Positions 28,857-64,000 of a stretch of 64,000 nucleotides of DNA are shown here, one piece after another. A model generated the notes under the pieces. That model ran no database searches and was not told the origin of the DNA. It was given only the letters and a program-made list of their open reading frames with translations. This DNA is from a bacterium. GTDB taxonomy: Bacteria; Patescibacteriota; Minisyncoccia; Phycocordibacterales; JAGLPS01. The DNA lies in NCBI GenBank assembly GCA_030690305.1, contig JAUYHB010000020.1, forward strand, positions 23,535 to 87,534. Reading direction: 5' to 3'. Position 1 is the first letter of the stretch; each line of letters starts with the position of its first letter. A program made the position numbers and the translations under genes.

Positions 28857-28914
28857 TATAGTAGCAAAAATCCAGTTGTTGGGCAATTTTTTACCGATTG
28901 TTATAATCAAACAT

Positions 28915-30345: not shown

Positions 30346-30394
30346 GCAAGAAGTCTAGCACAGCAAAGGAATTGCCGAAAGTTGTCCTTTAAAA

Positions 30395-31051: not shown

Positions 31052-31125
31052 TGGTGCGAGTAGGGGGAATCGAACCCCCACCATCTGATTGGCAACCAAA
31101 TGTTCTACCATTAAACTATACTCGC
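31052..31125 (-). tRNA. tRNA-Gly (anticodon GCC), CCA encoded
   Basis: Manual fold: acceptor GCGAGTA/TACTCGC, anticodon loop TTGCCAA, T-arm GGGGG-TTCGATT-CCCCC, and a genomically encoded 3' CCA. Confidence 0.85.
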
Positions 31126-31220
31126 AATAAGCGCAATTATAGCCCTATTCAAAAATATTTACAATTGACCTCATCCTGCCCACCACAAGGCGGTTTGCGG
31201 CTCATTAGAGGCACTACGTG

Positions 31221-31292
31221 CGCTCCTGGCAGGATTCGAACCCGCAATAGCGGTTCCGAAGACCGCTGTGATATCCATTTCACCACAGGAGC
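31221..31292 (-). tRNA. tRNA-Arg (anticodon TCG)
   Basis: Manual fold: acceptor GCTCCTG/CAGGAGC, D-arm GTGA/TCAC, anticodon stem GCGGT/ACCGC with loop CTTCGGA, T-arm GCGGG-TTCGAAT-CCTGC. Confidence 0.8.
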
Positions 31293-31350
31293 ATGAACAT
31301 ACATCATAACGCGGTTAGGAAAAAAACGAAATATATAATAAAATGGAACG

Positions 31351-34098: not shown

Positions 34099-34111
34099 AG
34101 TTAATCTAAAA

Positions 34112-35041
34112 TTACTTTTGATTGCCCTTGTTATGGAATCGATGGTGCACATCACGAAGATGCTTATCCGTAACATGAGTATAGATTTGCGTTGTCCCAA
34201 TGTGCGCGTGGCCCAAAAGGGCTTGAACCGAGCGTAAATCTGCGCCGCTCTCAAGAAGATCAGTCGCAAAACTATGCCGGATGACATGCGGCGTTACTTT
34301 TTTGGTGATACCCGCCTTAATGGCATAGTATTTTACAATTCGTTCTACCGAACGTGAAGTAAGTCTTTTGGCATTAGTGTCGTGCCTGCTTACATGGATG
34401 AATAAGGCATCTTCCATGTCGGTTCGTTTTCCAAGGTACTGGCGTATTGCCTCCTTCGCACGCGGGGAAATAAAAACTACGCGCACTTTGTCTCCTTTTC
34501 CACGGATGGAAACTTCATCTTTCCTCAAATCAATATCTCGGGGAAGAGAGCAAAGTTCTGAAACACGAAGACCTGTGGAAAAAAGCAATTCAAGTATCGC
34601 CCTGTCCCGCAAATCCTTAACTGTTTTGGCATTTGGGGCTTCAATAAGGCGTTGCAGTTCATCCGCCGAAATGAGATCCAGGGAGCGTTCTCCCACTTTG
34701 GCAAGCTCTATACGATCCGGAGACAGAGACTGTATTTTCCGGCGCATAAGATACTTAAGGAAGGAACGAAGGGCAATAAGATAATAATTTTGGGTACGTT
34801 TTTTGAGCGTGTCGTAAGGGCCTCCGCTTTTCGTCTTTTTTCTGTTAAGAAAAAGGCGGTATTCCCTGATTAAATCGTCGGAAATATCTTCCGGTTGCTC
34901 GGTTCCGATAAAAATAAGAAAGGAGTCCAGGTAATGGGCGTAATTTTCAACTGTTTTGAGGCTTCTGCCTTTCTCGATTTCAAGATATTCGAGAAATTCT
35001 CGTTTGAGCTGGGTAAGCGTCATAACAACATTGTGCGACAT
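34112..35041 (-). CDS. xerC: Tyrosine recombinase, XerC/XerD family
   Basis: C-terminal catalytic motifs R...HSFATDLLESGADLRSVQALLGHAHIGTTQIYTHV (R-H-R-Y), with an N-terminal SAM-like domain. Confidence 0.8.
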   Translation of the reverse strand: MSHNVVMTLTQLKREFLEYLEIEKGRSLKTVENYAHYLDSFLIFIGTEQPEDISDDLIREYRLFLNRKKTKSGGPYDTLKKRTQNYYLIALRSFLKYLMRRKIQSLSPDRIELAKVGERSLDLISADELQRLIEAPNAKTVKDLRDRAILELLFSTGLRVSELCSLPRDIDLRKDEVSIRGKGDKVRVVFISPRAKEAIRQYLGKRTDMEDALFIHVSRHDTNAKRLTSRSVERIVKYYAIKAGITKKVTPHVIRHSFATDLLESGADLRSVQALLGHAHIGTTQIYTHVTDKHLRDVHHRFHNKGNQK

Positions 35042-44157: not shown

Positions 44158-45105
44158 TTAAAACGGATTTCGGGCGCCACGAACTTCAAAATGAAGGTGA
44201 CTTCCTGTTGAACGGCCGGTTGAACCAACATACCCGATAACTTCTCCCTGGGAAACGACTTGTCCTACCCTGGCAAGGACTCTGCTCATGTGGGCATACA
44301 AGGTCTGAGTACCGTTGTCATGCGCAATAACAACGTAATCTCCATACCCTCCGTTCCATCCGGAATCCCTGCTGATAATCACTACACCCGACGCGGAAGC
44401 AAAAACGGGAGTGCCCGACGGTGCCGCAATATCAATTCCGTTGTACCCGTGGAGTCCTTGACTACGAACACCTTGAACCGGGCGCATATAGTACCCTTCA
44501 TAATGAGGGTATGTTGTCCCTTTAACGCTTGAGCTTGTTATTGTAGCTGTCTGAGGTGCCTCTCCGTCAGGAATAATGACAACACTTCCCACTGCGAGGG
44601 AGGCGTTTGCGGAAATATTGTTATATTGGACTATTTCATCAAGGTCTCCTTTGTAGGTTTTGGCAATTTTGGCAAGAGTGTCGCCACTTTTTACCGTGTG
44701 TCGAATACCGGAAACCGGCAGAATCACCAGGGTTTGGCCTGGTTTGATGGTTGAACCACGTAGATTGTTGCCCCAGACGATAGTGTTGACCGATACGTTA
44801 AACATTTTTGCGATTTGCGACAGGGAGTCTCCTTCGTGAACAACATAGAGGCTGATTTGGTCACTTGAGGGGCGAACTTTCCCATATTCATCTCCACTTG
44901 GTCCAGTCTCAGGCAATAAAGCTGAGTCGTCAACAATAACAAGGTCGCCACCACCGCTTGCCGGGTTGAATGTGGGGTTGAGAACCCCTTGGAGTAAGGC
45001 TATATTTTGGGAATTAGCCTCGCGCTCATTAACAAAAGTAACGCGATTTATAAAATCAGAAAAAAGGGAAAGGAAGCCGGCGTGAAGACCGTTCGGAAAA
45101 AACAT
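44158..45105 (-). CDS. LysM-domain peptidase M23 (cell-wall endopeptidase)
   Basis: Two LysM repeats (YVVHEGDSLSQIAKMF..., HTVKSGDTLAKIAKTY...) and M23 motifs (GIDIAAPSGTPV, HLHFEV). Confidence 0.8.
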   Translation of the reverse strand: MFFPNGLHAGFLSLFSDFINRVTFVNEREANSQNIALLQGVLNPTFNPASGGGDLVIVDDSALLPETGPSGDEYGKVRPSSDQISLYVVHEGDSLSQIAKMFNVSVNTIVWGNNLRGSTIKPGQTLVILPVSGIRHTVKSGDTLAKIAKTYKGDLDEIVQYNNISANASLAVGSVVIIPDGEAPQTATITSSSVKGTTYPHYEGYYMRPVQGVRSQGLHGYNGIDIAAPSGTPVFASASGVVIISRDSGWNGGYGDYVVIAHDNGTQTLYAHMSRVLARVGQVVSQGEVIGYVGSTGRSTGSHLHFEVRGARNPF

Positions 45106-48188: not shown

Positions 48189-49172
48189 ATGGGTTGGTTA
48201 AAGAGCAGGTGGTTTAAAATCGGTATCGCCGTAATTTTTGCGGGGGGTCTTTTGTGGTGGGCTATAACAACCGTAAGCAAAGACACATACCGTTCGGAAA
48301 ATCTTTCAATAGACAGCTCCGTCAGAACTCTTCTTTCAGCACAGGCGCAGCAGGACGGAGACAACGATGGACTGAAAGACTGGGAGGAAGCGTTGTGGGG
48401 CACATCTCCTTCAAATGCTGATACGGACGGGGACGGTACGATAGATGGGAAGGAGGTGATGCTTGGAAGGAACCCCGCGGTTGCGGGCCCGAATGACACA
48501 CTGACCCAATCACAACTCGACGAAAAAACAAATTCCGGTCAAGAGGACTTAACTCTCACGGATAAATTTGCGAGAGAGTTTCTTTCCTCATACCTCACTC
48601 AAAAACAAGGGGGCGGGACAGTGGGGGCAGCATTTGAACAAGACCTTTTAAGCAAAGCGCTGGACCAGAATGCCATATCAAGGGGGAAAGTGTATACAAA
48701 AAATGACGTCACAGTAACTACCCAAAACGATTCCCAGTCAATTAAGGATTACGCCAATGCTGCGGGAAAAACTTTCAGAGTAAACACTCTTCCCCAAAGC
48801 GCGTATGACCCGCTTCTTATTTTGCAAAAGGCTTTTGAAAAAGAAGACGAGAGTGAAATCAAGAAATTGAAAGACATATATGAAACAAGCAGCAGAATAG
48901 TAGCCGACTTGCTTTCTGTTAAAGTCCCTTCAGACCTGGCAGAAAGGCATGTTCGACTTCTCAATGCAATGAGTGTTGTTTCCGAAAACTTCAAGGGGAT
49001 GGGTGACGGATTAAATGACCCGTTAAAGGCAATGCTTCATGTCCAGATGTATTACAATTCGTCCGTAGTGGAAATGCGGAACTCCGTAAAGGGAATCGGT
49101 GATTATCTCCGTGAACAGGGCGTTGTTTTTCAACAGGAAGAGGATGGTACTCTAATTATGAATACGATATAA
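48189..49172 (+). CDS. Membrane-anchored hypothetical protein with thrombospondin-type-3/dockerin-like Ca-binding repeats
   Basis: N-terminal TM; DGDNDGLKDWEE and DTDGDGTIDGKE repeats. Confidence 0.4.
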   Translation: MGWLKSRWFKIGIAVIFAGGLLWWAITTVSKDTYRSENLSIDSSVRTLLSAQAQQDGDNDGLKDWEEALWGTSPSNADTDGDGTIDGKEVMLGRNPAVAGPNDTLTQSQLDEKTNSGQEDLTLTDKFAREFLSSYLTQKQGGGTVGAAFEQDLLSKALDQNAISRGKVYTKNDVTVTTQNDSQSIKDYANAAGKTFRVNTLPQSAYDPLLILQKAFEKEDESEIKKLKDIYETSSRIVADLLSVKVPSDLAERHVRLLNAMSVVSENFKGMGDGLNDPLKAMLHVQMYYNSSVVEMRNSVKGIGDYLREQGVVFQQEEDGTLIMNTI

Positions 49173-49213
49173 TTTCAGGTAAGGATTTTCTATAACGAAC
49201 GCAGTTCGGCATA

Positions 49214-50101
49214 ATGCACCCGTATAATAAAAAAAGTTTCTTGGGACAAAAGGTTGTGGCAGCACTACTTGTATTTGTTTTTTTCTTTTCCAACCTTGCT
49301 TTTATGCCACAAAAAGTTCAGGCCGCTGTACCTACATTTGACGTAGGACTTAACCCTGCATTTGCAGCATATACTGCAGCATTTACAACATATGCCGGAA
49401 TAGAAACTGCAAACACAACATCTCTCACAGTAAAAGAAACCATCCTTGACGCCATTGCTTGGGCTGCCGCAAAAGTTATTATCCAGAACATGCTTCAAAG
49501 TATTGTTACCTGGGCCCAAAACGGCTTTAATGGTGGACCGTCTTTTATCCAAGACCCTGAAGGGTTTCTACGGGACGTTGGGGACCAGACAGCAGGACTT
49601 GTGATTAGCGACATCGCGCCTTTTCTCTGTGAACCTTTCCGTATCTCTCTTCAAACAAACCTTTCTTTGAGTTATTCTCTGCCTGTTTTTGATAAAATTG
49701 AATGTACACTTTCCGATGTCATCGACAACATTGACGGTTTCTTGAATGGAGATTTCACACAAGGAGGCTGGGATGGGTGGTTTTCAATGACACAAAACAA
49801 AAGAAACAACCCTTACGGAGCGTTTCTCTTGGCACAGTCGGAACTGAATGTGCAGGTGGCAAAAAAACAGGGAACAGAACTTAAGTTTCTTGATTGGGGA
49901 CAAGGCTTCTTTTCGTTCCGTGATGCTGACGGACTTGTTCAGACCCCGGGAAAAATTATTGAGAACCAGCTAAATCATTCCCTAGGCTCTGGAACACGCT
50001 CACTTGAAATTGCTGACGAAATTGATGAGGTAATCGGCGCTGTTGTCGCGGGCCTCGTCACACAGATGTTTAGCGGTGGTAGTGGTTTTCTTGGACTTTA
50101 A
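49214..50101 (+). CDS. Secreted hypothetical protein (first gene of the T4SS-like cluster)
   Basis: Signal peptide ending VQA; no recognised domain. Confidence 0.4.
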   Translation: MHPYNKKSFLGQKVVAALLVFVFFFSNLAFMPQKVQAAVPTFDVGLNPAFAAYTAAFTTYAGIETANTTSLTVKETILDAIAWAAAKVIIQNMLQSIVTWAQNGFNGGPSFIQDPEGFLRDVGDQTAGLVISDIAPFLCEPFRISLQTNLSLSYSLPVFDKIECTLSDVIDNIDGFLNGDFTQGGWDGWFSMTQNKRNNPYGAFLLAQSELNVQVAKKQGTELKFLDWGQGFFSFRDADGLVQTPGKIIENQLNHSLGSGTRSLEIADEIDEVIGAVVAGLVTQMFSGGSGFLGL

Positions 50102-50104
50102 ATT

Positions 50105-52081
50105 TTGATAATAATGTTTAAAAGAGAGAATAAAAAAATCTTCCTGAAACTCCTGTCATCCTTCTTACTGTTGCTTCTTGTCCTTGTTCCTTTCTTTGTA
50201 AATGCACAACAAGCCTCGACTCAGGAAAGCGGGGAAAAGTGTGGCTGGACTAACATGGCCGGATGTATAGAGATGGCGTGGGGCAAACTTGTAGGCTCCA
50301 TAGCGGATCTTATTCTCAGTCTTGCGGCATTTGTTACGTTTGCGGCAGGAACATTATTGGACTTCGTCATTAAATACACAATTGTTGATATGTCTGCGAA
50401 TGTAGGTGTAATTACCGGGATCAGCACTGCTTGGGCGGCGTTACGAGACCTTGCGAACATTTTCTTCATATTCATTCTCCTTTACGCGGCTATTGCTACC
50501 GTCCTTCAGATGGGAGGAGTAAATACAAAAAAAATAATCACCCGGGTGATTATTATTGCCCTTCTCATAAACTTCAGTCTTTTCTTCACGCGGGTGATGA
50601 TTGATGTGTCCAACGCCCTTTCGGTTGGCTTTTATAATGCCATTTTAAGTGGTGTTTCCGGAAGTGACGGCATTTCATATGCATATATGCAGAAACTTCT
50701 GCTCACAACCGTTTATCAACCCGGTAGTGGTGCTGGTGCTGACCTTACAAAGTTTCCGGAGGTAGGGTTTTTGGGTGCAATATTTTTCCTTGTAGCCGCC
50801 TTTGTTTTTCTTGCCGCAGCCGTAATGTTCATCACCCGTTTTGTTGTGCTTGTTTTCCTCATGATCACTTCTGCCCCTGCTTTTGCAGCTATGGCCCTCC
50901 CTAATGACAAATATTCCGGAGATTGGTGGAAAGCTTTGTGGGACCAACTAATTTTTGCCCCTGTTTTCTTTATTCTTTCATGGGCAACTCTTCAGGTGCT
51001 TGATGGTGCACTGGGCACCTTGGGCGCAGGAGCAAGCTTAAAAGACGCCATTGCAGGGAGTATGGATGCGAACGGAAACAAAACTGCGATTCCGGGTGCA
51101 GCCGCTGTGTTTGCCAACTTCGGAATCGCAATAACATTCATGATTGTTACTCTTACCATTTCTAAGAAACTTGCCGGAAGTGCCGGAAAAGGAATTCAGA
51201 GTTTTGTAGGTGGGGTTGTTGGTGGAGCAACTATTGGCGGAGCCGCGTGGCTTGGCAGGCGAACATTGGGTTGGGCTGGTGACAGATTAAGCCAAAACAC
51301 TTCCTTACAAGGAGCTGCAGGTCAAAATAATCTTGCGGGGAAAGCTGCTCGATTAACTCTTCAGGGTACCAAAAACTTATCGAGGGCAAGTTTTGATGCG
51401 CGCAATATAAAAACACTCGGTATTGGTGAAACTATTTCTAGAGAAGGTAGTTTGGGTAAAGGAAAAGGCCAGGGTGGTTATGTTACAAGTAAGGACAGCC
51501 AAAGAGAAAGGGTACTTAAGGATGACCAGCTAAGGGTTGCTGGAGCGAGAACAGCAATTGTTTCGACTGGTTTGGCGCCTACAGCCACAGGTGCGGATAT
51601 TCTTGCTATGCAACAACAAGTGAGCAAAATGAGTACAAACGATATTGAAAATACAAGCTTAGCAAATTTGCAAAGAAGTGAGTTTGCCACAGGATTATCA
51701 CACAGTCAAATGGAAGACATTAAGAAAAGCACTAAGTTTACACAAACAGAAAGTAATTTGATTGAAAATAGACGCGATGCAGGACTTGTCAATCTTTGGA
51801 ATGCATCTGGATCAGCAGGACTGTTCGCGGTTACAAAGCGTGCTAAACCAAATGAGATGGCAGAACTTCCGCAACCAATCCTTGTTGATCCTAACTTCGC
51901 ACAACATTTAAGTGTCCCTGCGTTACAGCGCATAACTAATGAAGGGACTCTTGGTTTCGTCGATAAAGCATTGGTAAGAGCTAATATTATTGCTGCAGCC
52001 GCACTTCCGACTAACATAGGGAATGTCCAGCTTCAGAAAACGGCATCGTGGCTTGCGAGCCCGCAGGGCAGCATCTTCTAA
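50105..52081 (+). CDS. VirB6/TrbL-like polytopic membrane protein (type IV secretion component candidate)
   Basis: Signal peptide plus 6 or more TM helices and a long hydrophilic C-terminal tail, as in VirB6/TrbL. Sits in the cluster with VirB4 and PrgI homologs. Confidence 0.5.
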   Translation: MIIMFKRENKKIFLKLLSSFLLLLLVLVPFFVNAQQASTQESGEKCGWTNMAGCIEMAWGKLVGSIADLILSLAAFVTFAAGTLLDFVIKYTIVDMSANVGVITGISTAWAALRDLANIFFIFILLYAAIATVLQMGGVNTKKIITRVIIIALLINFSLFFTRVMIDVSNALSVGFYNAILSGVSGSDGISYAYMQKLLLTTVYQPGSGAGADLTKFPEVGFLGAIFFLVAAFVFLAAAVMFITRFVVLVFLMITSAPAFAAMALPNDKYSGDWWKALWDQLIFAPVFFILSWATLQVLDGALGTLGAGASLKDAIAGSMDANGNKTAIPGAAAVFANFGIAITFMIVTLTISKKLAGSAGKGIQSFVGGVVGGATIGGAAWLGRRTLGWAGDRLSQNTSLQGAAGQNNLAGKAARLTLQGTKNLSRASFDARNIKTLGIGETISREGSLGKGKGQGGYVTSKDSQRERVLKDDQLRVAGARTAIVSTGLAPTATGADILAMQQQVSKMSTNDIENTSLANLQRSEFATGLSHSQMEDIKKSTKFTQTESNLIENRRDAGLVNLWNASGSAGLFAVTKRAKPNEMAELPQPILVDPNFAQHLSVPALQRITNEGTLGFVDKALVRANIIAAAALPTNIGNVQLQKTASWLASPQGSIF

Positions 52082-52082
52082 A

Positions 52083-52748
52083 ATGATGAACAATCAACTC
52101 AGAGAGAAAATAAAAAATGCACTTCAAAAATTCCCTAAGGAATTGAAATATGAAGTGACCTCCGAGGAGGCTTTTGATGCCTTCCTCGAGATAGTTAAAA
52201 AACATGGAATAGAAAAAGAGAAGACTGACAGATTTTCTGATGCTGTTTATTCGGTTGCATACGGTGTTGAGCCTTTAGAAACACTTACCGCACAAATTGA
52301 AAAGGCGTTGGACGGAAATATTCAAAAAGTACAACCAATAGCGGAGGACGTGAGAAAAATGATAATTACTGAGAATCTAAAAAATTATCTGGCGGCTCAA
52401 AAAACAGGCATGGCGTCTGGTATAGAAAAAATAGGTGGGCAGTACGTGTTCCCAGAAACAGGAAACATGATAAAAACTACCTCGGTGTCTGAGCAGACAA
52501 GCAACAGGTCTGTAATGGCAAACGGGGAAGTGATAAATAAGACGCAGGTTCTTCATGACATTGAAAATCCTCAAAAGGTTACTCCCGCATTTGAACATCT
52601 TCCTTCCGGAGTGGCTGGGGGGAACATCATCGACGACAAGCTCAACAAAATCGTTAAACTGCCACGGCAAGAAAAATATGATGAAAATGGAGGCCCTAAA
52701 CCAGAAGGACAGATTCAGTCGGACCCTTATCGGGAACCGATTGAGTAG
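52083..52748 (+). CDS. Hypothetical protein (T4SS-like cluster)
   Basis: ORF directly following the VirB6-like gene. Start taken at MMNNQ immediately after the upstream stop. Confidence 0.35.
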   Translation: MMNNQLREKIKNALQKFPKELKYEVTSEEAFDAFLEIVKKHGIEKEKTDRFSDAVYSVAYGVEPLETLTAQIEKALDGNIQKVQPIAEDVRKMIITENLKNYLAAQKTGMASGIEKIGGQYVFPETGNMIKTTSVSEQTSNRSVMANGEVINKTQVLHDIENPQKVTPAFEHLPSGVAGGNIIDDKLNKIVKLPRQEKYDENGGPKPEGQIQSDPYREPIE

Positions 52749-52763
52749 CGGGATTTTTTAACA

Positions 52764-53198
52764 ATGCAGTTTCAAACCCCACAATTCATTGACGTTGAGG
52801 ACAAGATTTTCGGTCCTCTGACGTTTAAACAGTTCGTATATCTTGCCGGAGGGGCAGGGCTTGTTGTCGTTTTGTGGACGTTGTTACCTCCCTTTTTTGC
52901 CGTTCTTTTAGGATTGCCGGTTATCGCTCTTTCACTGGCGCTTGCATTTTATACCGTAAACAACAAGCCTTTTGTAAATATCATGGAATCGTTTTTTTCG
53001 TATGTTTCCGGTAGTAAATTATATGTGTGGAAAAAAGAAGCGAAAAAGGCAATGCCTTCGGAACCAAAAGAAGGTGGAACCGACCTGGGACTTTACGTCC
53101 CCCGCCTTTCGGACAGTAAGTTAAAAGACCTTACCTGGAGTCTTGGTGTCAAAGACCAGACGCAACCGAAAGAAAAGAGTTCTGTTATTGGGCAATAG
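52764..53198 (+). CDS. PrgI-family (VirB3-like) T4SS membrane protein
   Basis: IDVEDKIFGPLTFKQFVYLAGGAGLVVVLW followed by a second TM matches the PrgI/TcpE-like family found beside VirB4 in Gram-positive-type T4SS. Confidence 0.55.
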   Translation: MQFQTPQFIDVEDKIFGPLTFKQFVYLAGGAGLVVVLWTLLPPFFAVLLGLPVIALSLALAFYTVNNKPFVNIMESFFSYVSGSKLYVWKKEAKKAMPSEPKEGGTDLGLYVPRLSDSKLKDLTWSLGVKDQTQPKEKSSVIGQ

Positions 53199-53326
53199 GT
53201 GAATAGACGGTATTACCATAGAAGTTTAATATCCCCGCAGATTATTGCGATTTGGGACAAACCTTCGAGCATAAAATGAGTCTGTCTGGCTTGCTCTGAG
53301 GTTTAATACCTCTTATTATTATACCA

Positions 53327-53971
53327 ATGGCTATCCAGGCACAGGCAACTCAAGACTTTGTTCCAATTAGTGAAATCAAAGACGGCATCGTCATTCTAAA
53401 GGACGGGTCATTGCGCTCAATAGTGATGGTTTCATCTCTTAATTTCGCGCTCAAAAGCGAGGAGGAAAAAAATGCCATCATTTCACAGTTTCAGAATTTT
53501 CTCAATTCACTGGATTTTTCCATGCAAATATTCATACAGTCCCGACGACTCGATATTCGGCCATATCTCGCGCTTATCGAACAGCGCTACAAGGAACAGG
53601 TAAATGAGCTCATGCGGATTCAGATTCAAGAATATATCGAGTTTATAAAAAACTTTACCGAAACAACGAATATTATGACGAAAAATTTCTTTATCGTTGT
53701 GCCGTATACCCCGGCTTTTCTTCAAACAAACAAATCAACGAGAGATTTGCTTAATTTCGGAAAAACAAAGTCTCAAAAAGAAACCCAAAAAACCAATGAG
53801 GCCGTCTTTGAGGAAAACCGCACCCAGCTTGAACAACGCGTTGCCGTCGTTGAACAAGGCCTTGTGCGCTGCGGCATCCGAAGCGTGCTCTTAGGCACGG
53901 AAGAGGTGATTGAGTTGTATTACAAAATTTTCAATCCCGGCGAAACCGAGAAAGCAATACAAACATCGTAA
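53327..53971 (+). CDS. VirB4/TraE-family ATPase, N-terminal domain fragment (separate ORF)
   Basis: TQDFVPISEIKDGIVILKDGSLRSIVMV ... NAIISQFQNFLNSLDFSMQIFIQSRRLDIRPYL matches the conserved N-terminus of Gram-positive VirB4 homologs (PrgJ/TcpF-like). It ends at TAA 53969-53971, 1 nt before the next ORF's ATG. Confidence 0.55.
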   Translation: MAIQAQATQDFVPISEIKDGIVILKDGSLRSIVMVSSLNFALKSEEEKNAIISQFQNFLNSLDFSMQIFIQSRRLDIRPYLALIEQRYKEQVNELMRIQIQEYIEFIKNFTETTNIMTKNFFIVVPYTPAFLQTNKSTRDLLNFGKTKSQKETQKTNEAVFEENRTQLEQRVAVVEQGLVRCGIRSVLLGTEEVIELYYKIFNPGETEKAIQTS

Positions 53972-53972
53972 T

Positions 53973-55784
53973 ATGGGGTTACTTGATTTTTTACAACCGA
54001 AAAAGAAAGAGGAGGAGGTCTCTATGATACTGCCGCAAGACGTATATGACGCGGGGGCTCTTGAATTAAAAGACATTATCGCTCCAAGCGCCTTGAAAGT
54101 CGGCACGAAAGACCTTAATCTTGGAGGAAAATCCGTCCGAAGTTTTTTTGTTATTTCTTATCCGCGATTTCTCGCGGAAAGTTGGTTTTCTCCGATCATT
54201 AACCTCGACAGGGTATTTGATGTCTCGATTTTCATTCATCCCATTGAAACCGCAACCATTCTAAGGCAGTTTCAAAAGAAAGTAGCGGAGGTTCAGAGCC
54301 AAATTCATGAACGCGAAGAAAAAGGCCTTGTCCGCGACCCGAAGCTTGATACCGCATATCGCGACTTGGAAGAATTGCGTGACCGACTGCAGCAAGCACA
54401 GGAGAAACTTTTCGATGTCGGATTATATATTTCAATATATGGAGAAAACGATGAAGACCTCAACAAAGCGGAAGGCCAGGTGAAGTCCATTCTTGAGTCA
54501 AAACTTGTATATGTAAAACCGGCGCTTTTCCAGCAAGAACAGGGGTACAAAAGCGTGTTGCCCGTAGGAACCGACCTTTTGGGAGTTCATTCGAAGTTTA
54601 ATTCCGCTCCTTTATCGAGTCTTTTTCCTTTTATCTCATTTGACCTGACTTCGGACAAAGGAATTTTGTATGGGATAAACAGGCATAACTCGAGTCTTGT
54701 GTTGTTTGACCGATTCAGCCTTGAAAATTACAACTCAATCACGTTCGCGAAATCAGGCGCGGGAAAGTCATATGCCACCAAACTTGAGATTCTTCGGTCA
54801 CTGATGTTCGATACTTCAATCATTGTCATCGACCCCGAGCGTGAATATGAATATCTCGCACAGGCCACCGGAGGAAGATACTTTAAAATATCTCTCACTT
54901 CGGAACACCACATTAACCCTTTTGATCTCCCCGTCCCTCAGGAAGGGGAATCGGGAGCAAATGTACTGCGCTCAAACATCATAAACCTTGTCGGACTGTT
55001 TAGAATTATGCTTGGAGGACTTACCTCAGAAGAAGACGCGGTTATTGACCGGGCAATTTCCGAAACATATGCACTTAAGGATATAAGCCCGAATTCGGAT
55101 TTTTCCGCCGTGACACCGCCTCTTTTGTCAGATTTTGAGCTTGTGTTGTCGGGTATGGAAGGGGGAGAGTCCCTGGCGCAACGATTAAGTAAGTACACAA
55201 AAGGAACGTGGTCAGGTTTCATCAACCAGCCGACCAACATTGACATAAACAAGAAATTTATCGTTTTCTCGGTTCGCGACATGGAAGATGAGCTGAAACC
55301 CATTGCCATTTACATCATCACCCACTACATATGGAATGCCATCAGAAAAGAAATCAAAAAACGCCTCCTCGTTATTGATGAGGCGTGGTGGATGATGAAA
55401 TCGGATGACACCGCGTCGTTTTTGCTTGGCCTTACCAAGCGCGGAAGAAAATATTATCTTGGCGTCGCGACCATTACCCAAGACGTTGACGACTTCCTTG
55501 GGTCTCAATACGGAATGCCCATCGTAACAAACTCTTCAATTCAGCTTCTTCTCAAACAAGCCCCGCCGGCCGCCGAGAAGTTGCAGAAAATTTTTAATCT
55601 TACAGACGAGGAAAAGTATCTGCTTCTTGAGTCTGACGTTGGGGAAGGGATATTCTTTGCAGGACTTAAGCACGTCGCCATAAAAATCATCGCCTCGTAT
55701 ACCGAAGACCAGATTATTACTTCCGACCCCTCACAAATACTTGCCATTGAAAAGTCGAAAAAGGATCTGGAGGTAAATTCTTAG
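53973..55784 (+). CDS. virB4: VirB4/TraE-family type IV secretion ATPase (ATPase portion)
   Basis: Walker A FAKSGAGKS and Walker B LLVIDEAWWM; conserved VirB4 middle and C-terminal regions. It starts in a different reading frame from the upstream fragment. Confidence 0.75.
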   Translation: MGLLDFLQPKKKEEEVSMILPQDVYDAGALELKDIIAPSALKVGTKDLNLGGKSVRSFFVISYPRFLAESWFSPIINLDRVFDVSIFIHPIETATILRQFQKKVAEVQSQIHEREEKGLVRDPKLDTAYRDLEELRDRLQQAQEKLFDVGLYISIYGENDEDLNKAEGQVKSILESKLVYVKPALFQQEQGYKSVLPVGTDLLGVHSKFNSAPLSSLFPFISFDLTSDKGILYGINRHNSSLVLFDRFSLENYNSITFAKSGAGKSYATKLEILRSLMFDTSIIVIDPEREYEYLAQATGGRYFKISLTSEHHINPFDLPVPQEGESGANVLRSNIINLVGLFRIMLGGLTSEEDAVIDRAISETYALKDISPNSDFSAVTPPLLSDFELVLSGMEGGESLAQRLSKYTKGTWSGFINQPTNIDINKKFIVFSVRDMEDELKPIAIYIITHYIWNAIRKEIKKRLLVIDEAWWMMKSDDTASFLLGLTKRGRKYYLGVATITQDVDDFLGSQYGMPIVTNSSIQLLLKQAPPAAEKLQKIFNLTDEEKYLLLESDVGEGIFFAGLKHVAIKIIASYTEDQIITSDPSQILAIEKSKKDLEVNS

Positions 55785-55787
55785 ATT

Positions 55788-56102
55788 ATGTTTAATGAAA
55801 CAAAACGGGTGGGGATGGCACATTTTTTAGTTGCCGGTATCGCTGACGGGTTGCAATTTGTAGTTAATTTCCTTCATTTGTTCCCCGTTATTGGAACTAT
55901 TCTTGCCTCAATGGTGTCTTTTGCCATCACCTTGGGAACATTTTTGACATTTGGTATTTTTTTCGGAACGTGGTTTCCTGTCACCTTTTTTGGGGAAACA
56001 ATTCCCGTCATCAACGGCCTTCCTTTCTGGACTGCCCGCGTCATGTTTGAAGCCGCAAAAGAGCGCGCACCTGCGGCAGCACCGGTGCCAAATAAAAAAT
56101 AA
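55788..56102 (+). CDS. Small membrane protein (hypothetical; T4SS-like cluster)
   Basis: Three hydrophobic helices; no homology recognised. Confidence 0.35.
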   Translation: MFNETKRVGMAHFLVAGIADGLQFVVNFLHLFPVIGTILASMVSFAITLGTFLTFGIFFGTWFPVTFFGETIPVINGLPFWTARVMFEAAKERAPAAAPVPNKK

Positions 56103-56138
56103 GTGTGGAAAAGTTGACAAAACATTGTGATACAATAA

Positions 56139-57275
56139 ATGCATATGCGTAGTATTTCTCTGATTAAAGTGTCTTTTGTGGTGTTTGTGTGTGCAATGTC
56201 TGCTTTTTCGTTTGCTCAAACTTCCGATCCGTATCAGCTGAGCCCGGAGGAATTGGCCCTTACACAAACAGGAAGCACGACGTCTTTTACTTCTACAACA
56301 AACAGTCAGTACCTGGGTGAACAGTTACAGAAACTCCAAGACGCGATTCAAAGCCAGTATGGGTCAATGATAAGTATCAGAAGCAAACCGGATGCGCCAA
56401 AACCTTTTGAGAAAATTATTGTGGAAATTGAAGGGTATAGCGTTAATCTCAACAGTTCCTATATCACTTGGTCCGTGAACGGAGTGGCACGGAAGGCGGG
56501 ACCGGGAGCAAAGAGCGTTGAACTTGTTTTGGGAGGGCTAGGAAGTGTTACCGTTGTTTCCGCAACAATTGAAGCCGATGGAGGAATAAATATTGAGAAA
56601 GAAATAACATTACGGCCGGTGGACGTTGACCTTGTTTGGGAGGCGCAGTCATACACACCTCCTTTCTATAAAGGCAAGGCTTTAAACGCGCCTCAGGGAA
56701 GTGTGGTTATAACCGCCATTCCATACGTTGTTGAGGGAGGAGTAAGGATAAATTCAGCAAATCTTATTTACAAATGGAGTAAGGACAATACGGTGCAAGG
56801 AAGTTTGTCGGGGTCTGGAAGAAATACGTTTGTTTTCAATGGCTCAATCATTTCAAGGCCCGTTACAATTTCCGTTGAAGTAACTTCACCCAAAAGCAAT
56901 ATAAAAGCGGTTAAAAAAATAACCATTAAGCCGTCTCAGGCAAAAGTGCTTCTTTACGAGATCAACCCACTATATGGTGTAGGATACGCGAGCGCGATCG
57001 GAAAAGAGTATGAGATGAGAGGAAAGGAACTGACGCTTATCGCTACTCCGTACTTTTTCAGCAGCCAAGACAAGGCGGGTGATAATTTAAGTCATGTCTG
57101 GTCTCTTAATAACAAGAAAATTGATGGCGAGGCGAACAAAAACGTCATTACATTCCGAAGGCCTGAAACCGTCGGAGTTTCGCAAATTGCCCTTGGTGTA
57201 GAGAGTGGGAATAAAATTCTTCAGTCCGCAAGAAACACCGTTCTGCTTAAATTTAGCGAGGAAAAAAGCGAGTAA
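56139..57275 (+). CDS. Secreted hypothetical protein with internal beta-rich repeats
   Basis: Signal peptide (AFSFAQTSD); repetitive Ig-like segments. Confidence 0.4.
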   Translation: MHMRSISLIKVSFVVFVCAMSAFSFAQTSDPYQLSPEELALTQTGSTTSFTSTTNSQYLGEQLQKLQDAIQSQYGSMISIRSKPDAPKPFEKIIVEIEGYSVNLNSSYITWSVNGVARKAGPGAKSVELVLGGLGSVTVVSATIEADGGINIEKEITLRPVDVDLVWEAQSYTPPFYKGKALNAPQGSVVITAIPYVVEGGVRINSANLIYKWSKDNTVQGSLSGSGRNTFVFNGSIISRPVTISVEVTSPKSNIKAVKKITIKPSQAKVLLYEINPLYGVGYASAIGKEYEMRGKELTLIATPYFFSSQDKAGDNLSHVWSLNNKKIDGEANKNVITFRRPETVGVSQIALGVESGNKILQSARNTVLLKFSEEKSE

Positions 57276-57284
57276 GATAAGAAA

Positions 57285-57713
57285 ATGGAAAAAATCTTTA
57301 ATTTAATAAAGAAAATATGGACAGTGGGACTTGTGTTTCCTTTGTTTGTTTTCGCACAAAGTGAGTACACTCTCTTAGAGCCCCTCACAAATCCTTCCGG
57401 CGGAACAATCAATTCGACTTCGGATCTTGGGAACTATCTTCAGTTTGCTTTTCAATTTACTATCGGCATCACAGGAGTGCTCGCGGTTATTATGATTATC
57501 CTTGGAGGAATCCGCTATCTCTCTACCGACGCAATCAGCGGCAAAGAAGAGGGCAGGAGCATGATTACAGGGGCTATAGGTGGACTTTTACTCGCAATTC
57601 TTTCTTGGCTTATCCTTAATACAATCAATCCGGACCTGTTGAAGTTTAATGTGATACCTTCGTCAAATTCTTCCGGTGGGGGAGGGGGCGGAGGGGGAGG
57701 AGGAGGTTTTTAA
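57285..57713 (+). CDS. VirB2/TrbC-like pilin candidate with poly-Gly C-terminus
   Basis: Signal peptide ending FAQSE, two hydrophobic helices and a C-terminal GGGGGGGGGGGF. The architecture resembles conjugative pilins. Confidence 0.4.
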   Translation: MEKIFNLIKKIWTVGLVFPLFVFAQSEYTLLEPLTNPSGGTINSTSDLGNYLQFAFQFTIGITGVLAVIMIILGGIRYLSTDAISGKEEGRSMITGAIGGLLLAILSWLILNTINPDLLKFNVIPSSNSSGGGGGGGGGGGF

Positions 57714-57725
57714 TTTAACACAATC

Positions 57726-58961
57726 ATGCTTAAAAAATTTCTCATACCCGTCATTATTTTTGTTATTATCGCAGGAGCACTGGGAGCATATTTTTTCTTT
57801 TTACAAAACAAAAATCCCAATAATACTTTTTTTGGAGACCTTTTTCCTTTCGGACAAGGCCCTGATTTGGGAAATGGCTCAACTGTGACAGAGAGTGGTG
57901 GGGAAAATGGTAACGGTAATGAAGAAGCGAATATTTTACCTGCCCCTCAGATACGCAAAATAACGGGGGAACAGGTGGCAGGGGTAACCCTTATTGACGC
58001 GGCTAGCACAACGGTTATCCGTTACATTGAAAGGGGTACGGGACATATATACGAAGCAGACGCCCTTACACTTGCTTTGAAAAAGATATCAAATACAACT
58101 ATCCCGAAAATTTATGAAGCTTTGTGGACCGGGAAAGGAGATTCGGTCATTCTTCGATATTTGAAAGACGACAACGAAACGATTGAGACATTTTATGCAA
58201 AGCTTTCAAAAAATTCTATCTCCGGAGCGGATGGAAATTCGGTCTCGGACCTTGAGGGAAGTTTTCTTCAAACCGACATAAGAGAAATTGCAGTTTCTCC
58301 GGATAAAAACAGTATTTTTTCCTTGGTTGCTTCAGTGACGAGTGGAAGCGGAGTCATTTCACGGCCCGATGGAACACAGAAACAAACTTTTCCTCTTCCC
58401 CTTAAAGAATGGGTTGTCTCATGGCCGACACAGGACACAGTTCTTCTTACAACAAAACCGAGCGCGGAGGTTGGAGGTTATGTATACACGTTTAACACCT
58501 CGACCGGAGAGCTGGGAAAAATCACAGGGGAAGTGGGTGGCATAACGGCAAGCGCAGACCAGTCTCTGAACTATCTGCTTTACTCCGAGAGCAAACAAAA
58601 AAGCTTCTTCCTGAATTTACTCAATATTGCTGACAAAACAATTACCAGGTCTCCGTCCCAAACCCTACCCGAAAAGTGTGTGTGGAGCAAGAAAGAGAAA
58701 TCTGTTATTTACTGTGCGGTCCCTAAAACAATACCAAGCAATGACTATCCGGACGCGTGGTACCAGGGGATTGTATCTTTTTCGGATAAAATATTGAAAA
58801 TAGATTTTGAGAATAACACAACTTCCGTAATCGCCGACACGAAAGAGGCGGTAGGGGAAGAGGTTGACGCAGTTTCACTTTCTCTCAATGCAGAAGAAAA
58901 CTATCTTGTCTTTCTGAATAAAAAAGATTCCTCTTTGTGGGGAATTCAAATTACTCCTTAG
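57726..58961 (+). CDS. Signal-anchored hypothetical extracellular protein
   Basis: N-terminal TM (IPVIIFVIIAGALGAYFFF) with a long beta-rich ectodomain. Confidence 0.4.
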   Translation: MLKKFLIPVIIFVIIAGALGAYFFFLQNKNPNNTFFGDLFPFGQGPDLGNGSTVTESGGENGNGNEEANILPAPQIRKITGEQVAGVTLIDAASTTVIRYIERGTGHIYEADALTLALKKISNTTIPKIYEALWTGKGDSVILRYLKDDNETIETFYAKLSKNSISGADGNSVSDLEGSFLQTDIREIAVSPDKNSIFSLVASVTSGSGVISRPDGTQKQTFPLPLKEWVVSWPTQDTVLLTTKPSAEVGGYVYTFNTSTGELGKITGEVGGITASADQSLNYLLYSESKQKSFFLNLLNIADKTITRSPSQTLPEKCVWSKKEKSVIYCAVPKTIPSNDYPDAWYQGIVSFSDKILKIDFENNTTSVIADTKEAVGEEVDAVSLSLNAEENYLVFLNKKDSSLWGIQITP

Positions 58962-60042: not shown

Positions 60043-60177
60043 CTACAAACCCAGGCGCGCCCTCCCTTTTCGTCTTCGACGCTGCACTACCTTTTTGCCG
60101 GCGTGTTTCCTCTGTCTCGAGAGGAAACCATGCGTTGTTTTTCTTTTTCTTTTCTTAGGTTGGTATGTTCGTGACAT
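60043..60177 (-). CDS. rpmH: 50S ribosomal protein L34
   Basis: Manual translation of the minus strand gives [44 protein letters not shown] (44 aa), a near-consensus L34. It is not in the supplied ORF track because of its size. Confidence 0.85.
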
Positions 60178-60333
60178 AAGTATTGTATTCTACAATGTTT
60201 GTATTACTTATTCAAGGTGTATTTCATGTTCCTTGTACACCCCTTATACACAACTTATTAACATAAATGAGAGAAAAAAGGAAGTTCTATAATTCAAAGA
60301 CGAGGATATAATTAACCCTACCTAAAAAGTACG

Positions 60334-61680
60334 ATGATGGATACAAAAAAACTTTGGGATAGCGTACTTACTGAAATAGAGTTGAATGTCTCACGGGCAA
60401 CTTTTACGACATGGTTTAAAGACACGTACGTTTCCAAGGAAGAAGACGGGGTTGTTTTTGTAAGTGTGCCAAACGCATTTGTAAAAGAGTGGCTTCTCAA
60501 CAAATACCACAACATTATCTTGAAGTCGCTGCGAAGCGCTCTTGAGACGATTCGTTCCGTGGAGTATACAATCTCAAGAAGCGAGGAAAAGCCGCAGGAA
60601 GAACAAAAAATAGAGCCTCAGAGGACTTTTTCCGAACTTCCACTACATGATTTATATATAAACAAGGAGGACAACTTAAACCCACGCTATACCTTCGAAT
60701 CTTTTGTTATCGGACCTTTTAACGAGCTTGCCTATGCTGCGTCCCAAGCGGTAATAAAAAAGCCCGGTATTACATATAATCCTCTTTTTATTTACGGAAA
60801 CACCGGACATGGAAAAACGCACCTGATTCAAGCGATTGGCAACCATATAAAAAGCACGCAGACGGAAAAAAGAATTCATTATGTTACCTCGGAAAAATTC
60901 GCTCTTGATTATATAAATTCAGTACAAAACAATAAAACAAATAATTTCAAACAAAAATACAGAAAGTATGATGTTTTGATTATGGACGATATCCATTTCC
61001 TATCAAATAAAGAGAAAACCCAAGAGGAATTGTTTCATCTTTTTAATTATCTTTACGACAACAACAAACAAATTATCTTCTCTTCTGACAAACATCCGAA
61101 TTATATTCCCAACCTTGAAGAAAGGCTTAAATCAAGGTTTGCGGCGGGAATGATTATAGATATACCGATTCCGGATCAAGAGTCACGCGCGGCGATTTTA
61201 AGGGCAAAATCACGCATGAACAACTTTATCTTAAATGAAGAAGTTATTGATTTTCTTGCCCAATCAATACCGAGTAATATCCGTGAATTGGAAGGAGTGC
61301 TCAACTCGTTGATTTTTCAAACACAATTAAAAGGAAAGGACTTACTCCTTCATGAAATAAAAAACCTTATTAAAGACAGCGCCAAACCAAAGAGAAGCCT
61401 TGCGCCAAAAGACGTGATAAAGATAATTGCCGATTTTTATAATATTGAAGAAGAGAATATATATAGAAAAACAAGAAAGAAGGAAATCATTAAACCGAGA
61501 CAGGTTACCATGTATCTTCTTCGTGAGGATTTTAATATTTCTTATCCTTCAATAGGGGAGAAGTTGGGGGGGAGGGACCACGCCACAATTATTCATTCAT
61601 GCGAGAAGATAAAAAATGAGTTGAAAACAAACCAACTACTTAATCAGGAGTTAAATCAGATACGAGCGATGATTTCATAG
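60334..61680 (+). CDS. dnaA: Chromosomal replication initiator protein DnaA
   Basis: AAA+ Walker A GNTGHGKTHL, Walker B LIMDDIHF, and a C-terminal DNA-binding domain. Confidence 0.9.
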   Translation: MMDTKKLWDSVLTEIELNVSRATFTTWFKDTYVSKEEDGVVFVSVPNAFVKEWLLNKYHNIILKSLRSALETIRSVEYTISRSEEKPQEEQKIEPQRTFSELPLHDLYINKEDNLNPRYTFESFVIGPFNELAYAASQAVIKKPGITYNPLFIYGNTGHGKTHLIQAIGNHIKSTQTEKRIHYVTSEKFALDYINSVQNNKTNNFKQKYRKYDVLIMDDIHFLSNKEKTQEELFHLFNYLYDNNKQIIFSSDKHPNYIPNLEERLKSRFAAGMIIDIPIPDQESRAAILRAKSRMNNFILNEEVIDFLAQSIPSNIRELEGVLNSLIFQTQLKGKDLLLHEIKNLIKDSAKPKRSLAPKDVIKIIADFYNIEEENIYRKTRKKEIIKPRQVTMYLLREDFNISYPSIGEKLGGRDHATIIHSCEKIKNELKTNQLLNQELNQIRAMIS

Positions 61681-61888
61681 TGTTAATAGCGAGTTGATAT
61701 ATTGAAGAAAGGGTGTTGGTAAGTTTATGAAAATAGTGTTAAAAAGATGAAAAGGGATTGTTATATACAGGTAGTTTTCTTAAATAAACATACTATTACC
61801 GAAAATTTCTCTAAAATAACCAGGTTTTAAGACAAAAAATAAACTTACCAACATATCCACTCCCTATATAAAAATAACTTCTTTATAT

Positions 61889-62986
61889 ATGAAAATAGAA
61901 TGTATTAAAGATAATATTCAAAGAGCTCTTTCTAAAGCTGAGCGAATTTCCGGTAAGAACCTTAATTTACAGATACTTAATAATATTTGTATTGAAGTAA
62001 AAAATAAGGAGGTTAAAATACGTTCAACAAACCTTGATTTAGGTATTGAAATCATCATACCTGCAAAAATACACTCGGAGGGTATTGTTGTTGTTCCAGG
62101 GAAAACACTAAGTCTTTTTCTTGAAAATATTAAAAATGATACAGTGGTTTCTTTGGAAAAAGATGAGAACGTTCTGAAGATTGTCACAAAACACAATTCC
62201 GCCACATTGAAAACATATTCTGAAAATGAATTTCCTACAATTCCATTAGTTGATGGGGTGCTCGCACAAGTTTCCGTAAAAGATTTTATTAACGGACTTC
62301 GTTCTGTTTGGTTTAGTGCGTCTTCTTTAAATATAAAACCCGAGCTCTCGAGTGTTTTTTTATGCCCGGAAAAAGGAAATTTATTTTTTGTTTCTACGGA
62401 CTCGTTCCGTCTCGCTGAAAAAAAGATTAAATTAAAAACATCCGACACTATTCCTCAAATACTTATTCCTATTAAAAATATTTCGGAAATTATACGAGTT
62501 TTCGAAGAATCGGATGGAGAAATAAAAGTACGTATAGATAAAAACCAAATTTCTTTCTCAAAAGACGGAGTATATCTCACATCCCGATTGGTTGACGGAA
62601 CGTTTCCGGATTATAAACAAATCATTCCTAAAGAGTCTCTCACTGAAATAATTCTTCTCAAAGAAGACCTGATAAACGCAATGAAGATATCTCAGATATT
62701 TTCCGACCACTTCAATCAAGTCAGCTTTCTTATAGACCCGAAAAAGAAAAGTTTTGAGTTGAAAACAAAAAATTCGGAAGTGGGAGAAAGTGTTCAGTCT
62801 ATTGACGCGGTTGTGAGGGGTGAACCGATCTCTCTTAATTTTAATTATAAATATATCTTTGACGCGTTTCAGTCGATTGCAAGTGACAGTTTGTCATTAA
62901 AGATGAGCGGGGCCGGGAAGCCAATGGTAATACAGGGAGTATCAGACCAGACATTTACATACATTGTTATGCCTATGAATAAATAG
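61889..62986 (+). CDS. dnaN: DNA polymerase III beta sliding clamp
   Basis: 365 aa three-domain clamp, directly downstream of dnaA. Confidence 0.85.
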   Translation: MKIECIKDNIQRALSKAERISGKNLNLQILNNICIEVKNKEVKIRSTNLDLGIEIIIPAKIHSEGIVVVPGKTLSLFLENIKNDTVVSLEKDENVLKIVTKHNSATLKTYSENEFPTIPLVDGVLAQVSVKDFINGLRSVWFSASSLNIKPELSSVFLCPEKGNLFFVSTDSFRLAEKKIKLKTSDTIPQILIPIKNISEIIRVFEESDGEIKVRIDKNQISFSKDGVYLTSRLVDGTFPDYKQIIPKESLTEIILLKEDLINAMKISQIFSDHFNQVSFLIDPKKKSFELKTKNSEVGESVQSIDAVVRGEPISLNFNYKYIFDAFQSIASDSLSLKMSGAGKPMVIQGVSDQTFTYIVMPMNK

Positions 62987-62988
62987 GA

Positions 62989-63240
62989 ATGAGACCTCTT
63001 GAAGATTTTCTTGAGAAAATAAAAAAAACGATTCTCAAAGGACAGGTTCTAAAGGGCGACATCGTTTGTATTATAAAAAAAGAAACCGGTATAGAAGTGC
63101 CGGTAAATGAGATAACGGTCTCGAATAAAAAAATTAAAATTTCCTCCCATCCTGCGATAAAAAACGAAATTTTCTTAAAAAAAAGTTCTATTCTTTCAGG
63201 CCTTAAGGAGCGAGGAATATTTATCGACGGAATTTTTTAA
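62989..63240 (+). CDS. Small protein downstream of dnaN, possibly DUF721/DciA-like
   Basis: 83 aa located where DUF721/DciA-type proteins commonly occur. Composition is compatible, but the call is weak. Confidence 0.3.
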   Translation: MRPLEDFLEKIKKTILKGQVLKGDIVCIIKKETGIEVPVNEITVSNKKIKISSHPAIKNEIFLKKSSILSGLKERGIFIDGIF

Positions 63241-64000
63241 TTTTCCGCCACATCAAAGAAAATCGAAGTCTGGTTTTTGTTGTACACGGAATCGTATATA
63301 ACCACCCTCAGTTCGTTGGTTTTTTCGATGTAACTTTCAAATTCTTGGGGGATAAAGGAAAAATTAAACGGAGACTTTGACGAATTTCCGATATAGTTTC
63401 CATTGAGGTAATATTCTATTTTTTGTAACGGATATGTTCCACTGTAACTTATAGACACGAACAGACTCTCTTGCCTGTCATATTGCTTCCCGAACGCAGG
63501 ACTTACAATAGAAACCTTTGGTGCGTATTCTGGTTTATGGATATCGTCAAATGTTTGGGGGACGGACATATCTGTCGTTTCCACGATATTGTGTGTAACC
63601 ACCCACCGGCGCACCTGATATTCCCAGCGCTCAAACTGAGGGTCATTTAGGGGGTTTACAGGACCCACACCAAGGGGGTCTTCTTTGTTTACCCAATAAA
63701 GGATTGAGTGCACTCCACCGGTCAAGATCTCTCCAAGGGTCTCTTGGGGCGTGTAAGGAGAGGCTTTTTTACCGGAAACCGTATCGATGGGGAAGGATAT
63801 TCCTCCTTGCCATTTTCCTCTTATCACGGGCTTGATGTTGTACAGGGCGCTCTCACTTAACGGCTGTGGTTTAACAAAATACTCATTGGGCAGTGTTTTT
63901 AGAACCTCTTGCATAAAGGCGTTCCAAAGAGGGGCAATAATAAACCCTGCAACTTTTTTTTCCATAGGGCGGTTGTCGTTGTTCCCGGCCCATGCTCCGA
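63237..64000 (-). CDS. Hypothetical protein, C-terminal part (partial; continues beyond the window end)
   Basis: The reading frame stays open upstream of the annotated Met to the window edge. Confidence 0.4.
   Translation of the reverse strand, partial: GAWAGNNDNRPMEKKVAGFIIAPLWNAFMQEVLKTLPNEYFVKPQPLSESALYNIKPVIRGKWQGGISFPIDTVSGKKASPYTPQETLGEILTGGVHSILYWVNKEDPLGVGPVNPLNDPQFERWEYQVRRWVVTHNIVETTDMSVPQTFDDIHKPEYAPKVSIVSPAFGKQYDRQESLFVSISYSGTYPLQKIEYYLNGNYIGNSSKSPFNFSFIPQEFESYIEKTNELRVVIYDSVYNKNQTSIFFDVAEN

Follow-up and report, generated by a model that had tools for sequence, protein, structure and literature searches.

The 64-kb window analyzed here (the whole stretch of 64,000 nucleotides of a Patescibacteria bacterium) carries, between 48189 and 58961, a cluster of eleven open reading frames (ORFs), all on the + strand in the ORF listing, several of which correspond to components of type IV secretion systems (T4SSs). 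We assigned families by Pfam and NCBIfam profile searches with the library cut-offs and called transmembrane (TM) segments, signal peptides and signal anchors by a hydropathy scan. For comparison, we assembled a set of 47 species-level loci with complete 10-kb flanks from the VirB4-similar loci L001–L080. The eleven genes, named g1 to g11 in their order, are separated by gaps of 1–41 bp with the exception of 128 bp ahead of 53327 (Table 1). A same-strand cluster of about ten genes had been described in an original prediction made from the DNA alone; its contiguity and common strand hold, while the count becomes eleven, including the soluble protein encoded by g4. The cluster is preceded by the genes for UvrD and KsgA and, as predicted, is directly followed by those for YidC, RnpA, RpmH (60043–60177) and DnaA, with DnaN next; the first three of these are on the − strand. 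At the 3′ end of the cluster, g11 and yidC are convergent and overlap by 11 bp (58951–58961). Promoter and terminator scans stayed at chance level, and an Rfam scan returned four tRNAs and nothing else.

Table 1. Genes of the T4SS-like cluster and one candidate accessory gene.
Feature	Coordinates	Strand	Basis or remark
g1, signal-anchored 327-aa protein	48189..49172	+	one N-terminal TM segment
g2, secreted, mainly helical 295-aa protein	49214..50101	+	signal peptide; directly 5′ of the VirB6-like gene
g3, VirB6-like polytopic channel protein, 655 aa	50114..52081	+	fold comparison
g4, soluble ~221-aa protein	52083..52748	+	TM-less; alternative start ATG 52023
g5, PrgI/VirB3-like	52764..53198	+	PF12666; two TM
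g6, TrsD-like, stand-alone VirB4 N-terminal domain homologue, 214 aa	53327..53971	+	NCBIfam
g7, VirB4 ATPase, MPF_FATA / CD1110 type	53973..55784	+	NCBIfam + Pfam
g8, small 104-aa membrane protein	55788..56102	+	2–3 TM (hydropathy)
g9, secreted 378-aa three-domain protein	56139..57275	+	signal peptide; hhalign
g10, VirB2-like T4SS pilin, 142 aa	57285..57713	+	PF18895; signal peptide + two TM helices
g11, signal-anchored 411-aa protein, possibly TolB-like beta-propeller	57726..58961	+	one N-terminal TM
LysM + M23 peptidoglycan peptidase, candidate VirB1-type wall hydrolase	44158..45105	−	Pfam Peptidase_M23, LysM; outside the operon

The PrgI/VirB3-like protein that had been predicted is encoded by g5, which scores 39.9 bits against PF12666 (cut-off 27) and was found in 47 of the 47 loci with a median identity of 52%. 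The ATPase is equally recognizable. g7 scores 360.5 bits against the conju_CD1110 model of NCBIfam (cut-off 325), covering model positions 183–733 of 752, and also matches the TraG P-loop and AAA_10 families of Pfam. Both of its Walker motifs are intact (A, AKSGAGKS; B, LLVIDEAW). Judged by these profiles, g7 is a VirB4 of the MPF_FATA / CD1110 type, and by identity it is nearest to other Patescibacteria VirB4s. The region 53327–55784 had been read as a single VirB4 gene; the identity as VirB4 is correct, but the region holds two genes, with g6 terminating at TAA 53969–71 and g7 starting at ATG 53973 in a different frame. In NCBIfam, g6 aligns with positions 102–284 of VirB4_plasma (E 2.7e-12) and positions 2–118 of CD1110, and it scores 31 bits against the TrsD model, under the cut-off of 200. 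In each of the 47 loci, VirB4 and the TrsD-like protein (median identity 63%) have an ORF of their own, indicating an ancestral split rather than a frameshift. A frameshifted or pseudogenised VirB4 is thus ruled out, in agreement with the published finding on TrsD.

Downstream of these genes, g10 provides the anticipated VirB2-like pilin with a poly-Gly tail. Its score against PF18895 (T4SS_pilin), 26.6 bits, is exactly the cut-off, its positional orthologues reach 29.7–37.4 bits, and it weakly matches the pilin-like family Mbov_0395 (E 4.6e-4). The C-terminal tail contains 11 Gly encoded by mixed GGN codons. It should be noted that the orthologues range from 140 to 499 aa, compared with 142 aa in the window, owing to highly variable and mostly C-terminal extensions (e.g., L020:13287-14162, L023:13269-14252, L025:13517-15016, and L075:13323-14624). 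Some of these extensions are Cys-rich, and in the window the region is shrunk to the 11-Gly tail. Wall hydrolase domains were looked for in the C-terminal extensions, none of which has a Pfam match. Such a variable appendage, if exposed on the surface of the pilin, might be tied to host specificity.

The gene directly upstream of g4 had been proposed to encode a VirB6/TrbL-like protein. g3 carries a signal peptide, about six TM helices and a hydrophilic C-terminal domain of ~290 aa, and no VirB6 match was obtained in Pfam, in NCBIfam, or by sequence and profile searches of PDB sequences. A precomputed PF19590 tag carried by some g3 homologues could not be recovered at E ≤ 0.01. In an AlphaFold2 (AF2) model built from a 40-sequence alignment, the mean predicted local distance difference test score (pLDDT) is 76.7 and exceeds 90 across most of the membrane domain, and a Foldseek search with this model retrieved R388 8rtd_L with a probability of 0.98 and an E of 0.27. 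The proposal therefore gained no significant hit to any hidden Markov model (HMM) and is backed by the fold comparison, on the basis of which we accept g3 as VirB6-like at the level of the predicted fold. R388 TrwI/VirB6 and Legionella DotA, which form an inner-membrane channel or stalk, have 10–13% identity to g3 and no HMM match with it. Because of the additional ~290-aa hydrophilic C-terminal domain, which distinguishes it from both, g3 may be described as an "extended VirB6".

The other six genes, g1, g2, g4, g8, g9 and g11, have no family above threshold in Pfam or NCBIfam. Hydropathy and profile scans confirmed the small membrane protein and the four secreted or anchored proteins of no family (g1, g2, g9 and g11) that had been predicted; for the small protein, g8, three TM segments had been claimed and hydropathy gives two to three. 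g1 contains an Asp-rich, TSP3/EF-hand-like Ca-binding stretch at residues ~53–90, with TSP3_bac and EF-hand matches under the cut-off, and a C-terminal domain to which no fold was assigned. A VirB8-like identity was considered for g1 and rejected, as its profile finds only Ca-binding segments in the PDB. The gene was found in 32 of the 47 loci by tblastn, and ORF-based blastp placed an orthologue at this position in 40 of the 47. The signal peptide of g2, which is present in 45 of the 47 loci, ends at ...KVQA/AV. In classical operons, virB5 holds the position of g2 relative to virB6, and a VirB5-like stalk or tip protein was suspected; the profile search of the PDB was empty, and the AF2 model from a 22-sequence alignment was of unusable quality (pLDDT 49.8). 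The public annotation of g2, U1D31_03005 (265 aa), begins 30 codons after the first ATG and would drop the predicted signal peptide.

g9, found in all 47 loci, consists of three homologous domains of ~100 aa (hhalign between segments: probability 93–97%, E 4e-10 to 3e-7), in each of which one Trp is invariant (W111, W213, and W321), and gave no hit in the PDB or Pfam. g11 is likewise present in 47 of 47 loci, and its profile weakly matches many TolB chains (best E 0.13), which is suggestive of a TolB-like beta-propeller. The sequences of g4 and g8 have diverged too fast for BLAST detection across loci. Their positions are kept: a TM-less ORF of 160–390 aa lies between the VirB6-like and PrgI genes in 43 of 45 loci, and a small ORF with 1–5 predicted TM segments (mostly 2–5) lies 3′ of VirB4 in ~36 of 46.

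Given that all six lack a family match above threshold and that g4 and g8 show hardly any sequence conservation, the six could be seen as unrelated passengers, the real system being PrgI-TrsD-VirB4 together with the VirB6-like protein and the pilin. The comparison across loci makes this improbable. g2, g9 and g11 recur in 45–47 of the 47 loci and g1 in 32 to 40 depending on the search, the genes keep their order and strand, the intergenic gaps within the window are 1–41 bp, the ORFs corresponding to g4 and g8 are conserved in position, and all six except g4 are predicted envelope proteins.

The host of the cluster belongs to the Patescibacteria. g3 is 100% identical to NCBI U1D31_03000, located on a 169,749-bp contig of a metagenome-assembled genome (MAG) named "Patescibacteria group bacterium". 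A search of GTDB species genomes with g7 found at least 575 relatives, of which the best 80 are 75–83% identical. The labels among these best 80 include Parcubacteria, Paceibacterota, Zambryskibacteria, Taylorbacteria, Campbellbacteria and generic Patescibacteria MAGs, and also "uncultured Candidatus Saccharibacteria" (~27) and "bacterium" only (~11). Among 72,556 plasmids, the best matches to g7 are VirB4s of monoderms (Streptomyces, Embleya, Pontibacillus, Clostridium, and Bacillus) at 29–35.5% identity, several of them annotated as the CD1110 family.

Synteny in related genomes, a check that the original prediction had called for, is regular. In ~47 of the 47 full loci, the cluster is kept between the same housekeeping genes in the near-invariant order UvrD-KsgA-g1-g2-VirB6-like-(g4)-PrgI-TrsD-VirB4-(g8)-g9-pilin-g11-YidC(−)-RnpA(−)-DnaA-DnaN. 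VirB4 has the highest median identity of the neighbourhood in these loci (78.6%), ahead of DnaA (62.9%), UvrD (53.6%), DnaN (48%) and YidC (45.6%), with the reservation that selecting the loci by VirB4 similarity somewhat inflates this contrast. The stronger conservation of VirB4 relative to DnaA and DnaN indicates strong purifying selection.

The cluster had also been said to abut the replication origin. RpmH, RnpA and YidC diverge from DnaA-DnaN, which is the arrangement of many bacterial origins, and the rpmH-dnaA spacer (60178–60333) and the dnaA-dnaN spacer are AT-rich, with GC contents of 0.295 and 0.26, respectively. Gene order thus agrees with the claim, whereas the other marks of an origin were not seen: matches to the DnaA-box consensus are not enriched (17 versus 13.9 expected), the rpmH-dnaA spacer holds one near-consensus DnaA box and no cluster of them, and the GC skew does not change sign in the window. 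Proximity to the origin is a reasonable inference from this gene order. Should oriC be located between rpmH and dnaA, transcription of this conserved operon would run towards it and head-on to replication.

No relaxase family, no VirD4/TcpA-type type IV coupling protein (T4CP) and no element integrase was found by Pfam among the scanned ORFs of the window, whose other large ORFs encode housekeeping proteins, ComEC, RecJ, PilB and PilC. Contig L082, which is 99.9% identical to the window over 60063–64000, extends the region by 9 kb, and none of the three was found there either; the extension encodes PBP1A, a class-I tRNA synthetase, RuvC, YebC, RuvB, a PilB-like ATPase, TsaE and PolA. The predicted lack of an adjacent relaxase, VirD4 or integrase is thus borne out over the window and 9 kb beyond. 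The GC content of the cluster (0.42–0.44) equals that of its flanks and of the rest of the window. The invariant synteny, the uniform GC content and the lack of mobility genes together argue for a vertically inherited chromosomal system rather than an integrative and conjugative element (ICE), in support of the chromosomal, non-conjugative apparatus originally proposed. Because it has neither relaxase nor coupling protein, the system would not mobilise itself. We consider it very probable that the cluster is a chromosomal T4SS of the Parcubacteria/Paceibacteria that belongs to the Patescibacteria clade and derives from the MPF_FATA conjugation machinery of monoderms.

The closest known systems are those of other Patescibacteria. 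A survey of 3,035 Patescibacteria genomes (Quinonero-Coronel et al. 2025, PMC12102498) places the VirB4s of Patescibacteria in a monophyletic clade within MPF_FATA; of the associated components, TrsD is the most abundant, and PrgI/VirB3, VirB6 and VirB2-like pilins also occur, the latter detected with PF18895 among other profiles. According to the same survey, relaxases are almost absent, T4CPs are seldom near virB4, and in Paceibacteria and Microgenomatia virB4 is close to dnaA, dnaN, rnpA, ksgA and rpmH. In Southlakia epibionticum, the T4SS encoded by SEML1_0006-0019, pilins included, is essential for epibiotic growth as determined by transposon sequencing, and has no recognizable coupling or relaxase proteins (Wang et al. 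2023, PMC10633639). The window cluster is like these systems in its TrsD-like protein, VirB4, PrgI/VirB3, VirB6 and PF18895 pilin, in having no relaxase or T4CP nearby, and in its chromosomal site by dnaA, dnaN, rnpA, rpmH and ksgA, as in Paceibacteria. It differs from the Southlakia system, which has a six-gene pilin array, in its single pilin gene, and from the Patescibacteria-clade systems in the lack of peptidase or lysozyme genes directly 3′ of virB4; the available text of the survey does not name g1, g2, g9 or g11, accessory genes specific to Paceibacteria. A LysM/M23 peptidase gene outside the operon (Table 1) is possibly, though uncertainly, an accessory gene of the T4SS. It was detected in only 10 of the 47 loci, where it lies at the edge of the fetched flanks, and in the survey VirB1-like proteins with M23/LysM domains go with virB4 in Paceibacteria (PMC12102498).

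More distant likenesses are found outside the phylum. The monoderm MPF_FATA systems (C. difficile CTn2 CD1110, E. faecalis pCF10 Prg/Pcf, and S. aureus pGO1 Trs) share the CD1110-type VirB4, PrgI and the TrsD-like protein with the window cluster, and both are without the outer-membrane core VirB7/9/10. In contrast to them, the window operon is not mobile and lacks a relaxase, a T4CP, a VirB1-type hydrolase, a PrgL/VirB8-like protein and an adhesin; a VirB2-like pilin, normally missing from the monoderm systems, is present, and its VirB4 has an identity of at most 35.5% to plasmid homologues. From the Mycoplasma ICE, the Mbov_0397 model matches the TrsD-like protein and VirB4 (E 2.7e-12 and 1.2e-74) and the Mbov_0395 family resembles the pilin, all under the equivalog cut-offs; unlike the window cluster, the Mycoplasma genes are part of a mobile ICE that encodes a transposase of its own. 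The Helicobacter pylori ComB system is also a non-conjugative T4SS subset without coupling protein and relaxase, but it belongs to a diderm and has a VirB7-10 core.

From what is known of these families, the following mechanism can be proposed. The split VirB4, composed of the TrsD-like N-domain and the ATPase core, would dock on the PrgI/VirB3-like and VirB6-like proteins to assemble a membrane translocon, which would energise the assembly of a VirB2-like pilus. g1, g2, g8, g9 and g11 may stand in for VirB5/7/8/9/10 as the wall-spanning and host-contact parts. The system would then most likely be a contact-dependent conduit between epibiont and host cell, a role suggested from the literature by analogy with the Saccharibacteria homologue. 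Reviews have speculated that the pilus is a conduit for uptake or for the exchange of signals (PMC12857230; PMC11665869), and a 2026 preprint on a cultivated member of the phylum, one that takes up RNA from its host, reports tubular structures penetrating that host (bioRxiv 10.64898/2026.06.21.733656). Its authors consider that the tubes may be T4SS pili and leave the mechanism of uptake unresolved.

As for the cargo, we tentatively put first the import of material from the host cytoplasm, such as nucleic acids or nucleotides, with the export of effector proteins a close second and other roles, DNA transfer among them, less likely. A bolder proposal is that g1, g2, g4, g8, g9 and g11 constitute an undescribed, Paceibacteria-specific envelope and host-contact module that replaces VirB5/7/8/9/10 and, together with the pilus and the conjugation-derived motor, forms a feeding tube for importing host RNA or nucleotides. 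We regard it as a rather long shot. The import idea is already published; the make-up of such a module is not.

Several points weigh against the interpretation of the cluster as a T4SS for host contact. The VirB6 assignment comes from a predicted structure with a weak Foldseek E and no HMM behind it, the match of the pilin is no higher than the Pfam cut-off, no role can be assigned to six of the eleven genes, and the nearness to the origin is read from gene order alone. The cargo is inferred and the direction of transport estimated, and we know of no experiment on any Paceibacteria T4SS. Furthermore, a relaxase or coupling protein could sit elsewhere in the genome, as VirD4-like genes are distant from virB4 in many Patescibacteria according to the survey (PMC12102498).

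The set of genes, the lack of a relaxase and the place beside dnaA were published between 2023 and 2025, and the cluster, though real and of biological importance, is a typical member of a known group rather than a new discovery. Nearly all Parcubacteria/Paceibacteria, which are ultra-small "CPR" bacteria dependent on a host, have such a cluster beside dnaA. It is a clean and complete Paceibacteria example with the ancestrally split VirB4. Patescibacteria account for a large part of bacterial diversity and live at the expense of other cells, and the residual value of the locus lies in the function of the system and in its six conserved partners of no family, obvious targets for learning how the machine contacts the host.

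A different function for the same proteins would be DNA uptake by a reverse T4SS, like H. pylori ComB or archaeal Ced, that feeds ComEC for transformation or nucleotides. In its genes (VirB4, VirB3-like, VirB6-like and VirB2-like pilin, but neither T4CP nor relaxase) the cluster is similar to ComB, CedB gives a weak match on VirB4 (E 8.6e-9, 34.6 bits versus a cut-off of 700), genes for ComEC, RecJ and a type IV pilus occur in the same window, and the possibility has been brought up before (PMC11665869). In Southlakia, however, deletion of comEC abolishes competence and not viability while the T4SS is essential, indicating that its essential role is not ComEC-linked DNA uptake (PMC12857230), and competence there relies on type IV pili, which the genome of the window encodes as well. 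We therefore give DNA uptake little credence and retain the host-contact conduit as the preferred reading. The competence and pilus genes lie on the − strand between 5587 and 19203 (ComEC, 5587–7080; RecJ, 7796–9532; PilC/T2SSF, 16122–17438; PilB/T2SSE, 17362–19203). Amid them, at 14321–16141, is a gene for a 606-aa CarboxypepD_reg/SpaA-like surface protein, and a second PilB-like ATPase is encoded ~7 kb beyond the window end on contig L082.

An integrated conjugative element, or its decaying remnant, that came to lie beside dnaA by chance is largely refuted and hardly credible, for although VirB4, PrgI and TrsD are homologous to proteins of monoderm conjugative plasmids and ICEs and a tyrosine recombinase is present at 34112–35041 (−), this sole recombinase of the window is a 309-aa XerC/D-type protein located 13 kb upstream with housekeeping genes between, across 47 species the cluster occupies the same position and keeps the same order amid the same housekeeping genes, there is no compositional break, no relaxase or T4CP occurs within 48 kb upstream or ~14 kb downstream, every gene of the cluster is intact, and conservation is higher for VirB4 than for DnaA.

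Some minor features of the window were also recorded. As listed, the XerC/D ORF overlaps by 176 bp an Exo_endo_phos nuclease-family ORF at 33322–34287, also on the − strand, whose start probably lies at a later codon. The 242-aa ORF at 63237–64000 (−) is the C-terminal part of a class A penicillin-binding protein of 847 aa (Transgly, Transpeptidase, and Big_7), as seen from contig L082. A tRNA cluster (Gly, Pro, Gly, Arg) occupies 28694–31292, and the ORF at 30886–31296 that is listed over it is probably spurious.

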